Source of the DNA: Candidatus Nitrosopumilus limneticus | Lineage (GTDB): Archaea; Thermoproteota; Nitrososphaeria; Nitrososphaerales; Nitrosopumilaceae | Assembly: GCA_022117465.1 (NCBI GenBank) | Contig: JAHCGZ010000005.1 | Coordinates: forward strand, 7,544-71,543 | DNA: 64,000 bases | Direction of reading: 5' to 3' | In this document: positions 7,490 to 62,930 of the stretch, piece by piece | Layout of the letters: each line of letters starts with the position of its first letter | Position numbering within the stretch: the first letter of the stretch is position 1 | The notes under the pieces: model-generated | What the model was told of the DNA's origin: nothing | What the model saw: the letters and a program-made list of their open reading frames with translations, nothing else | Database searches by the model: none | Position numbers and translations under genes: made by a program

Positions 7490-7561
7490 GCCAAGATTAG
7501 AAAGGATCATGAAAAGAAGGGGGATTTGAACCAAACTGGAATTCATGTTAATCTAGGCATA
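7490..7561 (+). ncRNA. Candidate small hairpin RNA 1
   Basis: GCCAAGATTAG/TTAATCTAGGC outer stem and CATGAA/TTCATG inner stem; TTTTAT 29 nt upstream; no ORF. Confidence 0.35.
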
Positions 7562-7591
7562 AATTTTGTATAAACCAAAATTACTGTAATT

Positions 7592-7629
7592 ATCAATTTT
7601 TTTATTGTTTTTTTATTTTATGAAAATTT
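7592..7629 (+). repeat. 38-bp T-rich direct repeat, copy 2
   Basis: 37/38 identical to 7437-7474. Confidence 0.85.
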
Positions 7630-7645
7630 TTCAAATCAATACATT

Positions 7646-7716
7646 GCCATAGGTAATGCTGGGCTGCGATAATTCAACTAACGCATCTTTCCGAATTATC
7701 GCGCTACCTTGTGGCC
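7646..7716 (+). ncRNA. Candidate small hairpin RNA 2
   Basis: GCCATAGGTA/TACCTTGTGGC outer stem and a perfect 10-bp GCGATAATTC/GAATTATCGC inner stem; GC-rich patch; TTTTAT 30 nt upstream. Confidence 0.45.
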
Positions 7717-7793
7717 AAATTCTAAAAATAATTACATGTAGTGCCTACATTTTATAGGAAGATTGATAGATTAACCAAATGTGAGTATAGAAA

Positions 7794-60134: not shown

Positions 60135-60162
60135 TTATTTCTATATTCGAATTTAGAAATAT
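60135..60162. repeat. 28-bp palindromic element, copy 1 (26/28)
   Basis: TTATTTCTATATTCGAATTTAGAAATAT. Confidence 0.85.
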
Positions 60163-60202
60163 TGATTTGATAGACGTTAAACATTTCACCAAAAGAAATA
60201 AT

Positions 60203-60230
60203 TTATTTCAATATTCGAATTTAGAAATAT
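60203..60230. repeat. 28-bp palindromic element, copy 2 (25/28)
   Basis: TTATTTCAATATTCGAATTTAGAAATAT; 68 bp from copy 1. Confidence 0.85.
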
Positions 60231-60317
60231 TGATCGGTTGTATGTAATTGGTGTACTCAATTAGACAACATAGATCTAATACATGATCGCTTAAGAACAA
60301 CATGCAGGAGATTTACA

Positions 60318-60566
60318 TTGGTTAGAACTAGAAGAGCCAATAGATATTGCATTGATTGTAGTGCAAGATTGGTGTATTATCCCAGGTTGTCAAACCCAAA
60401 AGCACCAAATGAACACAGAGTACTAGTGTACGCATGCCCAGATTGTACAGATGATTTTGAAAAACCAAAAATGTTCTCAATTAGACGTAATCAAGTAGAG
60501 GATCCACTTGAAACAGTAGAAGTAGAAATTACACAGTTACAAAAAAAAGTAGCTTTAGCAAAATAA
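60318..60566 (+). CDS. Zn-ribbon protein
   Basis: CIDC...CPDC; TTG start preceded by AGGAG. Confidence 0.7.
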   Translation: MVRTRRANRYCIDCSARLVYYPRLSNPKAPNEHRVLVYACPDCTDDFEKPKMFSIRRNQVEDPLETVEVEITQLQKKVALAK

Positions 60567-60570
60567 TTCC

Positions 60571-60798
60571 ATGGCCAGTTCAGAAAAAACAAGAAGTAAT
60601 TATTGGTATTTACTTCCTATATTTTTTTCAATAATCGGCGGAATTGTCGGATATTTAATTATTCAAAAAGATGATCCTCGTAAAGCAAAAAATTGTATCT
60701 ACATTGGAATTATAATGATAATAATTGGCATAATTTTTAATATCATGATATTAAATTTGGATGTTGTAAGTAGTCCAGGTTTTAACGTCAATGTATGA
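60571..60798 (+). CDS. Small 2-TM membrane protein
   Basis: WYLLPIFFSIIGGIVGY...KAKNCIYIG. Confidence 0.7.
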   Translation: MASSEKTRSNYWYLLPIFFSIIGGIVGYLIIQKDDPRKAKNCIYIGIIMIIIGIIFNIMILNLDVVSSPGFNVNV

Positions 60799-60832
60799 TT
60801 GAATTAACATATCTGCGGGCACTAGATTTACA

Positions 60833-60860
60833 ATATTTCTAAATTCGAATTTAGAAATAT
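60833..60860. repeat. 28-bp palindromic element, copy 3 (perfect palindrome)
   Basis: ATATTTCTAAATTCGAATTTAGAAATAT equals its own reverse complement. Confidence 0.9.
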
Positions 60861-60925
60861 CTCTAATTAATACTAGTGATCAAGTAGATTTAGAATCATA
60901 TAGAAGTAATTTTAAAAATCAAATT

Positions 60926-61375
60926 ATGAGCACATCAAGAATGAGAGATAATGTAGAAAGATGGCTAATTCATGAAAGTTTACCATTTGATCAAGTAAAA
61001 AATGAAGAAAATTCGTTTCAAATTTTAGTAAAGCATGCAGGGCGGTATGGAATACCTATAGAAATTTTTGAACCAAAAGCCCAATTAGGAATTCTAGTAT
61101 TAGGAGTCAAAATAGAAATGAAGAATAATCAAATTATAAGATATAGAGAGTTTAACCAGGATGAAAAAGCTAAATTTGCAAATAAAGTGTCAGATTTTTG
61201 CAACTCTATTGAAGCTATTAGTAAAATAATCACCGAAGATGGAAAGCAGAAAATTGCAATTTATGTTGTATTAGATGATAAAGAAAACATTAACCAGCAA
61301 TCAATGTTTAATGCAATAGACAGCATATCAGAAAAACATGAAAAAACATCTAGATTTTTACTAAAAACATTTTAA
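60926..61375 (+). CDS. DUF2299-like protein
   Basis: DNVERWLIHE; family resemblance recalled, not searched. Confidence 0.6.
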   Translation: MSTSRMRDNVERWLIHESLPFDQVKNEENSFQILVKHAGRYGIPIEIFEPKAQLGILVLGVKIEMKNNQIIRYREFNQDEKAKFANKVSDFCNSIEAISKIITEDGKQKIAIYVVLDDKENINQQSMFNAIDSISEKHEKTSRFLLKTF

Positions 61376-61578
61376 AAAATTAAAAAATGATAGATTAAAA
61401 CTTCAAAGACATGAACACGAGTAAAATATGTAGGGGTAAACAAGCGATTTTTGTTTGAAAAAATCAAAACACCAATAAAAAAATATTACAATGTCAAATT
61501 TTTGAAAAGTAACTAATCCAAATTATAAAAAAATTAGCATAAATTAAGAAATAACTAAAAAAAGAGTAATTTTTGAAA

Positions 61579-61754
61579 TTATGCCTAGATGTTAACCCCC
61601 CACTGCAAATAATGGAGTTTGAGCATATGGTGAAATTTTGGAAAACAAGCATTTGGATGGGGGGTTGTACAGTTATGCCTAGATACAAAAGGCAAGGGTA
61701 ATTCCACCAAGGTATCACAGCAAAAGAGGGGCAATCTTTCATAATTAGGCATAA
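61579..61754 (-). ncRNA. Candidate tandem hairpin RNA(s) ending in ATCTAGGCATAA boxes; strand inferred
   Basis: TTATGCCTAGAT at 61579 and 61673; inverted TAGGCATAA at 61746; AACCCCCCA/TGGGGGGTT stem. Confidence 0.35.
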
Positions 61755-61926
61755 AAGCTAAACCCCCAAAAATTAGACAAATTTAACGAGAAAAATTGGA
61801 ATTGAAAGAGAATTGATAGACAAAATCAGTTATTAAAAAAATAAGATGTAAGATTTTTGCAACAAATACCCCCCTATTTTGACATCAGTTTTAATAAATA
61901 ATGAATAAAAATCAAAAATTTGAATC

Positions 61927-62457
61927 ATGAAATTACGTATCAACTATATATCAAAAAAAAATGTAAATTTTATGGTTCGTTTGGGCATAGTACTAGTAAT
62001 TGGTGTAATAATTGGTTCAATGATACTTGCAAATTTCATGTATATGCAATATCAAACAAAACTCATTGAAACAAATGCAGGAGAACCTGTAATGGTAGGA
62101 CCAGTGGAATACATAATAACATTTGACGGTACGCATGAAGGAAGTAAAGATGTAAAACCAGAAAACATATTTGTGATGATTGGAATTGTTGCAAAAAATA
62201 CAGGTGATGAAAAAACACTGCTATCAGGGGGACAATTTTACTTAATTGATGAAAAAAATCAAAAACATGAAGCAGTTTTTGGTGAATTTACACCAAAAGA
62301 TCTACTTTTACAAGAATTAGAATCAAACAAGTCAATTGAAGTTACAACACAATTTGATATTCCGTTTGATGAAGATGCAAATTATAAAATTATAATCAGA
62401 CCACAAAAAGAACAATCAACTGTAGATACAGCATCAATTTGTTTAATAAATTGCTGA
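61927..62457 (+). CDS. DUF4352-like Ig-fold membrane-anchored protein
   Basis: N-terminal TM helix; KNTGDE...QFYLIDEKNQK...FDIP. Confidence 0.7.
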   Translation: MKLRINYISKKNVNFMVRLGIVLVIGVIIGSMILANFMYMQYQTKLIETNAGEPVMVGPVEYIITFDGTHEGSKDVKPENIFVMIGIVAKNTGDEKTLLSGGQFYLIDEKNQKHEAVFGEFTPKDLLLQELESNKSIEVTTQFDIPFDEDANYKIIIRPQKEQSTVDTASICLINC

Positions 62458-62558
62458 TCGATAAATTGTAAAAATCAAAAAAGTGTCAAATTTAATTATT
62501 ACTAGCGTAGTATTGTGTGACTTTTACCATATAACACTTACAATTTTAGAAAAAAGTC

Positions 62559-62858
62559 ATGGCAACATCTAAAGCCAAAAGATCTGAGGCAGCTAAGAAA
62601 GCAGCAAGAACTCGAAAGAGAAATGCAGCAGCAAAAGCAGCAGCAGCATCAAAAGCAGCAGTAAGTCGTAGAAGAAAGGCAGCAAGAAGTCGTAGTAAAT
62701 CTGCAGGTAAAAAAGCAGCTCCAAGAAGAAAGGTAGCAGCAAAACGCAGAGCCGCTCCAAAACGAAAATCTGCAGCAAAAAAAACAGCTCCAAGAAGAAA
62801 GGCAGCAGCAAAACGCAGAGCCGCTCCAAAGAGAAAGGCAGCTAAACGTAAACGTTAG
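62559..62858 (+). CDS. Highly basic K/R/A-rich histone H1/Hc1-like protein
   Basis: Almost no acidic residues; 69-bp internal duplication. Confidence 0.75.
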   Translation: MATSKAKRSEAAKKAARTRKRNAAAKAAAASKAAVSRRRKAARSRSKSAGKKAAPRRKVAAKRRAAPKRKSAAKKTAPRRKAAAKRRAAPKRKAAKRKR

Positions 62859-62902
62859 TCTGTCTATTCACCTTTTTTCTATTTTACTATACTAAATTTA
62901 TT

Positions 62903-62930
62903 ATATTTCTAAATTCGAATTTAGAAACAT
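62903..62930. repeat. 28-bp palindromic element, copy 4 (27/28)
   Basis: ATATTTCTAAATTCGAATTTAGAAACAT between convergent genes. Confidence 0.9.

Follow-up and report, generated by a model that had tools for sequence, protein, structure and literature searches.

A conserved module in an ORF-poor gap

This study analyzed a stretch of 64,000 nucleotides (the window) from contig JAHCGZ010000005.1 (C5 in our numbering) of Candidatus Nitrosopumilus limneticus (assembly GCA_022117465.1, here G000), an archaeal genome of 1.19 Mb in 8 contigs with a G+C content of 30%. Between positions 61376 and 61926 of the window lies a gap poor in open reading frames (ORFs), and within this gap, on the minus strand at 61572..61769, we identified a 198-nt module that is real and strongly conserved. 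Its G+C content is approximately 40%, as compared with 30% in its surroundings. An earlier description made from the letters alone (the sequence-only reading) had singled out the gap for its lack of ORFs and for six strings of G or C. Both remarks were borne out: the overlapping table-11 ORFs encode 82, 55, and 42 aa, none of which is kept in relatives, and six G/C runs of at least four lie at 61433, 61596, 61659, 61728, 61763, and 61869. Four of these six runs within 551 bp are at least five long, and the density of such runs in the genome is approximately 0.14 per kb.

The window contains three exact copies of the 12-mer ATCTAGGCATAA, at 7551-7562 (plus strand), 61579-61590 (minus strand), and 61673-61684 (minus strand), and a search of the entire 1.19 Mb found no exact copy beyond these three. 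The 12-mer is commoner than chance; with one mismatch allowed, 0.55 matches were expected from shuffled sequences, and none of 100 shuffles reached three. One-mismatch matches elsewhere in the genome were located mostly within genes. The sole other place in the genome where GCCTA and TAGGC, both words of the 12-mer, face each other is a near-palindrome on contig C3 (TTATGCCTAAATCTAGGCATAC, 121700-121721).

The two 12-mers at 61.5 kb are spaced with a period of 94. This spacing, the inverted TTATGCCTA at 61754-61746, and the pairings AACCCCCCA/TGGGGGGTT and CAAAT/ATTTG were read directly in the sequence, as were the AAAATTACT and the T7 run that follow the second 12-mer and that likewise follow a hairpin at 7.5 kb. 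The sequence-only reading had divided these signals into two tandem hairpin units. We found instead that the supposed units are the 5′ and 3′ halves of one module that aligns nearly gap-free across the family, because a single match of our covariance model (R1; G000:C5:69115-69312 on the minus strand, 180 bits, model positions 1-198), equivalent to 61572-61769 of the window, spans both. The stem said to close the first unit (TTATGCCTA/TAGGCATAA) is not conserved, with 62-64% of cells paired in relatives and three of its nine pairs absent in most species. The proposal of a structured RNA could be retained in part: the feature is conserved and noncoding, and RNA is a reasonable reading of it, but the dispersed family reduces to one full module and one partial paralogue.

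Read in the sense of the minus strand, the module comprises box1, block B, tail 2 with box2, a UUUUGAAAA center, and box3 with tail 5. Box1 (61757..61767), the 5′ direct copy of a G-run box, has the sequence GGGGGTTTAGC, is (nearly) invariant in 63 species, and can pair with box2. In the general order of the module it appears as GGGGGUUUAGC and is followed by UUUUA and tail 1, which corresponds in this genome to TTATGCCTA at 61746..61754, the 5′ arm of the stem described above, pairing with 61673-61681. A variable spacer leads to block B (UUUAGCUG.GA..CUUGGUGG). The core of this block, CTTGGTGGAATTA at 61699..61711, is conserved within the genus, becomes GGGGAUGUUUUGA in divergent genera, and has no conserved secondary structure around it. 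After another spacer, tail 2 (CUAGGCAYAAG) precedes box2; it is represented here by the first 12-mer (61673..61684), and most relatives have CTAGGCACAAG in its place. Box2 (61659..61670; GTACAACCCCCC, generally GUGUUCAACCCCCC) is an inverted copy carrying a C-run and forms a 13-bp helix with box3. Then come motif 3 (AUGCCUG), the invariant center, and motif 4 (AUGCCUA).

Box3 (61591..61601; GGGGGGTTAAC, generally GGGGGGUUUAAC) is the 3′ direct copy of the G-run box. It is followed by tail 5 (GCCUAGGCAUAA), occupied here by the second 12-mer (61579..61590), an exact copy of the first, and then by U-runs; AAAATTACT and the T7 run at 61557..61573 constitute a candidate transcription stop. In divergent genera, the sequence of box3 is GGGGGGUUUAGCUUUUA and equals that of box1; the layout of the module is therefore that of direct, inverted, and direct copies of one G-run box. 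The direct copies in one genome are identical at 26 of 27 positions. The two 12-mers are the version of tails 2 and 5 that belongs to this lineage.

Distribution and copy number

A 211-nt minus-strand query was used for the homologue search of the genus and, with BLAST, for the genera of the family. Full-length matches with 70-84% identity were obtained in 25 of 36 genomes of the genus, and BLAST yielded matches in 8 of the 27 genera of the family. We aligned 47 homologues over 201 columns (alignment A1; 80% mean identity, almost gapless) and used this alignment as the basis of the covariance model. The model revealed the full-length module in 142 of 150 family genomes that were at least 90% complete, representing all 24 genera (24/24). 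A draw across the order was positive, at full length, for all 23 family genomes and for none of the 127 genomes from 19 sister families.

The genomes that carry the module span 31% to 57% G+C. Its length is fixed at 196-200 nt, and the alignment is nearly gapless even in the segments that vary in sequence. One copy was found per genome; rare double hits were either a reverse-strand hairpin echo or a copy split over two contigs, and the model found no match in this genome besides that at 61572-61769.

A pattern scan of metagenomes recovered at least 120 contigs with the module, many of which end inside it. Contig ends located approximately 90-130 or 175-215 nt after box1 were observed in metagenome loci L141-L220 and in the relatives G110, G158, G174, and G196. 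They are likely an assembly effect and not evidence of function, because the conserved core lies between strain-variable flanks. One metagenome contig (Ga0008649_10008481; L214:1-900) carries three direct GGGGTTTAGCTTTT boxes at 17, 606, and 852, with one module copy inverted between the last two boxes and a weak second copy after the first, an arrangement unlike that of every genome examined.

The 7.5-kb hairpin

The third 12-mer terminates a hairpin at 7490..7562 on the plus strand. This hairpin has a 10-bp lower stem (GCCAAGATTA/TAATCTAGGC), a 6-bp upper stem (CATGAA/TTCATG), a loop containing GGGGGATTTGAACC (GGGGGAUUUGAACC in RNA letters), and a CUAGGCA(C/U)AA end followed by a U-run. The consensus fold of eight sequences contains 19 pairs; one of the changes in them is compensatory, and five are one-sided and keep a pair through G-U. 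A promoter-like box of 38 nt (P1; 7436..7475, plus strand) precedes the hairpin, and a further copy at 7592-7630 precedes a second hairpin at approximately 7640-7725. The 25-nt core of P1, TTGTTTTTTTATTTTATGAAAATTT, is exact at these two sites and occurs nowhere else in the genome. Both units were found in just approximately 8 of 61 genomes of the genus. The hairpin with P1 stands in another genomic context in two relatives, and relatives retain P1 with the hairpin even where the context differs.

The second unit (window 7592-7725, plus strand) is unrelated to the first and lies directly upstream of gatC; it is confined to the same eight genomes. The lower stem is formed by GCCATAGGTA/TACC(T)TGTGGC and the upper stem by GCGATAATTC/GAATTATCGC.

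The covariance model had no match at the 7.5-kb hairpin. The relationship to the 61.5-kb locus asserted by the sequence-only reading was nevertheless confirmed by a common G-run box, a CTAGGCA(Y)AA tail, and an AAAATTA flank, which follow in equal order and orientation at both loci. We read the hairpin as a young partial paralogue of the module confined to a small clade, and among the indirect hints of minus-strand transcription of the module it is the best.

Whether the module might be one member of a mobile or dispersed set was considered in the light of these data. The sequence-only reading had proposed either a dispersed family of 70-95-nt RNAs or non-autonomous inverted-repeat elements (miniature inverted-repeat transposable elements, MITEs). 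The three copies of the 12-mer, the inverted repeats formed by box1 and box2, the 38-nt direct repeats flanking the 7.5-kb hairpin, and the different context of this hairpin in two relatives speak for such elements. However, the module is single-copy in every genome searched, with no multicopy spread and no further copies of the boxes or the 12-mer in this genome, and a DUF2299 gene is kept downstream in approximately 40 of 49 relatives. The module also keeps a similar distance to cdc6 in 15 complete genomes, which represent 8 genera. Box1 and box2, the inverted pair, lie inside the module, whereas its outer boxes are direct repeats; no duplicated flank indicative of a target-site duplication was seen around it, and the 38-nt repeats are the promoter-like box common to two adjacent units rather than such a duplication. 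We consider a mobile or dispersed origin extremely improbable.

Coding potential and known RNA classes

No conserved coding frame was detected; across the 47 homologues, stops occur in all six frames, which rules out a hidden small protein, and conservation shows no 3-base periodicity. Searches for known RNAs were also negative. With Rfam 15 at the gathering threshold, two tRNAs were the sole matches in the window and none fell at either locus, and at E-values up to 10 both loci yielded chance-level hits of 12-18 bits. ARAGORN found no tRNA at either locus. The RNase P RNA, the signal recognition particle RNA, the rRNAs, and the tRNAs of this genome are all located elsewhere. The module is absent from Rfam and from the searchable literature, in which we found no description of it even when searching with sequence strings.

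Several specific candidates were rejected. A degenerate or intron-bearing tRNA, suggested by the tRNA-like GGGGGUUUAGC and GGGAGAGC, has no T-arm and no hit from a tRNA model. A guide acting on rRNA through contiguous pairing was ruled out, since no contiguous complementarity to 16S or 23S rRNA was longer than that in shuffled controls. An H/ACA or C/D small RNA was also rejected: no C or D boxes were found, no pocket was evident, and the ANA box is not conserved, the triplet at its position varying in relatives among ACA, AUA, AUG, ACG, UUC, UUG, and GUA. The lower stem that an H/ACA box would follow in the first half of the module pairs in 62-64% of cells. The internal loop of the 7.5-kb hairpin has 8 nt on its 5′ side and 0-1 nt on its 3′ side.

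Base pairing between the boxes

The helix between box2 and box3 comprises 13 bp, of which 93.6% are paired across 47 species. It is nearly invariant and shows no two-sided change; its one-sided changes run from G-C to G-U or between U-G and U-A. Counting by strand gave 61 G-U cells against 17 A-C cells on the minus strand, a result in favor of an RNA read from that strand. The core of the box1/box2 helix also has its wobble pair on the minus strand, and the G-U changes in these two helices are thus consistent as to strand.

The box1/box2 helix together with the stem of the sequence-only reading reached a score of 0.080, marginally above the shuffle value of 0.073; equally high scores were obtained with 40 of 500 shuffles. 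Some compensating pair changes were found in that stem in divergent genera, for example from G-C to U-A and from C-G to G-C. A kissing-hairpin model that paired tail 2 with motif 3 and motif 4 with tail 5 was rejected, as it performed no better than shuffles. Folding energy did not discriminate between the strands. Single-sequence folds contained box1/box2 in some species and box2/box3 in others and had no common inner structure. The module therefore contains one C-run box that is able to pair with either G-run box, and nothing else in it is demonstrably structured.

Flanks and neighboring genes

Of 49 loci, 40 have a convergent DUF2299 gene downstream of the module in its own sense, 10 to 1040 bp away, whereas the upstream gene and its orientation differ among relatives. 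The varying upstream gene and the position behind the 3′ end of the downstream gene, at 10-1040 bp, indicate that the module is not an operator or leader of one fixed gene. The module belongs to the stretch after tRNA-Asn (window 60135-62930), and the varying upstream gene fits a variable region.

Promoter- and terminator-like flanks occur in many genomes. In three divergent genera (L123, L126, and L132), a canonical TATATA box precedes the box1 G-run by approximately 25 nt; in AT-rich genomes the upstream region is T-rich, which makes a promoter reading ambiguous there. T-runs are present within approximately 25 nt downstream in most relatives, and in this genome the downstream flank resembles the one behind the 7.5-kb hairpin.

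The DUF2299 protein was rejected as a binding partner because 7 of 23 genomes with the module lack it and families without the module have it. No homologue of it was found among solved structures.

The G6 run at 61869-61874 belongs to a fourth element, box4 (61866..61886, plus strand), which consists of CCCCCC followed by TATTTTGACATC and lies 53 nt before the ATG of a DUF4352 gene. The position of box4 differs within the genus: most members have it on the downstream side of the core, at approximately 431 nt and preceding a conserved 57-aa ORF, and the clade of this window has it approximately 104-150 nt upstream. Its run length ranges from 5 to 11 among relatives. Because the side of the core, the distance, and the run length all vary, box4 is distinct from the core, and it looks like a promoter-proximal element. 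The C-run with the TATA-like TATTTTGACATC could be a length-variable promoter tract.

The conserved ORF of approximately 57 aa (MNKIALQIDETKINETF...) lies between box4 and the core, approximately 25-230 nt downstream of the core and on the opposite strand (L028 and other loci of the genus). It is missing from the clade of this window and falls below the 70-aa ORF cutoff that was used.

Position relative to the replication origin and terminus

In all 15 complete genomes compared (15/15), which represent 8 genera, the module lies 0.43-0.49 genome lengths from cdc6. The present genome has a single cdc6, on contig C3, and the module is on contig C5. In the 490-bp gap upstream of cdc6, two origin recognition boxes (ORBs) of the form CACGC(C/T)TGGA(G/T)TGGAAATAAAGGGGTAA and a degenerate inverted copy lie at approximately 91750-91880 of contig C3 (L109:240-370), and this is likely the replication origin of the genome. 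The module was rejected as an oriC or ORB cluster: the classical ORBs (CTGGAGTGGAAATAAAGGGG) stand beside cdc6 on the other contig and are unlike the GGGGGTTTAGC boxes of the module.

The terminus was located in a relative with a complete genome (G010; 1360 kb). Its cumulative T-A skew has a single clean peak, with the minimum at cdc6 (approximately 2 kb) and the maximum at approximately 678 kb; the module, at 606 kb, lies on the rising limb approximately 70 kb short of this terminus and was rejected as a terminus marker. The cumulative G-C skew of the same genome has a local peak at the module, which reflects gene orientation, and lacks a V shape over the whole genome. The marker of origin and terminus in this group is AT skew, not GC skew (G010, loci L269-L337).

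No tyrosine recombinase (PF00589) was matched in this 95%-complete genome, although all 14 control genomes (14/14) gave a match, and no 11-6-11 inverted-repeat core was seen by eye in the module. A dif/Xer site was rejected on these two grounds.

A role in chromosome maintenance near the terminus, as a fork trap, a dimer-resolution site, or a second origin, was weighed against these results. The similar distance from cdc6 in the complete genomes would suit such a role, as would the superficial likeness of the G-run boxes to the G-string of ORBs and the report that Thaumarchaea lack xerA, their manner of resolving chromosome dimers being unknown (PMC2958812). The conserved position is, however, weak evidence because origin-symmetric inversions preserve the distance between a gene and the origin. 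The offset from the T-A skew peak of G010, the missing PF00589 recombinase, and the differing ORBs on another contig also argue against this role, as does the single replication origin reported in Nitrosopumilus maritimus (PMC4010727, PMC5333045). We regard a chromosome-maintenance site as very unlikely.

Interpretation

Taken as a class, the module is most likely an uncatalogued small RNA gene and not a mobile repeat family. The specific form that we favor, tentatively and at slightly less than an even chance, is a noncoding RNA gene of approximately 200 nt whose C-run box can pair with either G-run box. The RNA would be a minus-strand transcript spanning roughly 61767 to 61560, with its start at or near the box1 G-run and its end at the T-runs behind the second 12-mer. 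Pairing of box2 (GUNCAACCCCCC) with box1 would close the 5′ half, and pairing with box3 would form a long 3′ hairpin, the one noticed in the sequence-only reading; these alternative pairings of box2 would amount to a two-state fold, in which sequence-specific contacts with a partner protein or RNA would be offered by the exposed CUAGGCAYAA tails and block B. The 7.5-kb hairpin would be a recent duplicate of the 3′ part that has a separate promoter-like box and displays the shared G-run in its loop. The conservation, the copy number, the G-U changes that agree in strand between two helices, and the promoter- and terminator-like flanks of many genomes are observed; that the module is transcribed at all, where its RNA would begin and end, that box2 alternates between its partners, and what it might do are inferred.

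A more elaborate version holds that the RNA is specific to the family, toggles between two folds, and serves either for sensing or to scaffold a ribonucleoprotein not described so far, with clade-specific hairpins such as that at 7.5 kb mimicking the G-run box and competing for the C-run. We find this version doubtful.

Several observations weigh against an RNA. No helix covaries beyond shuffle controls, and RNAalifold found no consensus structure in the 5′ half, recovering the box2/box3 helix alone. The stem of the sequence-only reading pairs better on the plus strand (80% vs 64%), and folding-energy z-scores are modest and alike on both strands (-1.7 vs -2.0). Two GC-rich relatives lack a TATA box upstream of the module, the GC-rich locus L134 has no T-run downstream, and extra G-run boxes occur at variable places around the core. 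Furthermore, box1 and box3 agree with each other where they mismatch box2, which fits a sequence-specific DNA site.

Such a site could take the form of an array acting at the DNA level, in which three boxes (GGGGGGTTTARC plus tail) in direct, inverted, and direct orientation at fixed spacing assemble a nucleoprotein complex at one chromosomal site, the helices being nothing more than inverted copies of a binding site. The near-invariant boxes and the spacers that are fixed in length and variable in sequence agree with this proposal, and the identity of box1 and box3 extends over 16-27 nt in divergent genera, positions not complementing box2 included. The missing covariation and 5′-half structure, the conflicting strand preferences of the two helices, the additional boxes on one metagenome contig, and the similar distance from cdc6 in the complete genomes point in the same direction. 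On the other side, no partner protein was identified, DUF2299 having the distribution described above; no tyrosine recombinase was found in the genome; the module lies off the skew-defined terminus of the closest complete relative; and the origin adjacent to cdc6 is a separate site with different ORB boxes. For an array of binding sites, 198 bp is a long stretch to be conserved without interruption, and the G-U bias of the box2/box3 helix and the promoter-bearing paralogue at 7.5 kb are better suited to RNA. We consider a DNA array a credible possibility and a close rival of the RNA gene, with the balance somewhat against it.

The family of ammonia-oxidizing archaea to which the module belongs is among the most abundant microbes of the ocean and has streamlined genomes; we know of no genetic system for the group. 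Nearly every member of the family keeps a gene-free gap of approximately 550 bp (551 bp here) whose 198-nt core has a fixed length and a largely constant sequence. The retention of this gap and core in streamlined genomes implies an important function that annotation has not captured. Settling whether it is an RNA or a site of assembly on DNA would introduce a new component into the cell biology of ammonia-oxidizing archaea and would provide annotators with a precise locus marker.

Comparison with known systems

The boxes of the module resemble ORBs and mini-ORBs with their G-string in that they are approximately 12-27 bp long, carry a G-run, and occur in both orientations in an unusually long AT-rich gap. 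They differ from ORBs in that the true ORBs of this genome stand beside cdc6 with another sequence, and the module is situated approximately 165 degrees from cdc6.

Some features recall box H/ACA guides: GGC-ACA follows the first half of the module in relatives and also the 7.5-kb hairpin, in which a 10-bp lower stem is followed by ACA or AUA and a T-run. Unlike these guides, however, the module has an unconserved ANA box, no evident two-sided pseudouridylation pocket, and no kink-turn conserved outside the genus.

The C-run complementary to both an upstream and a downstream G-run, with U-runs after the downstream helix, is similar to the arrangement in attenuators and the expression platforms of riboswitches. 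In contrast to those elements, the module has no gene in the same orientation downstream in most genomes, and its U-run is not adjacent to the helix but approximately 20 nt away. Termination in archaea requires no hairpin.

The remaining comparison is with the orphan small RNAs of archaea, such as the Hgc RNAs of AT-rich archaea in Rfam. The module departs from them in having no Rfam match even at an E-value of 10, no family-defining covariation, and boxes in direct, inverted, and direct orientation. It is like them in being a stand-alone noncoding element of approximately 200 nt that lies between protein genes, with conservation inside one lineage and a higher G+C content than the sequence around it.

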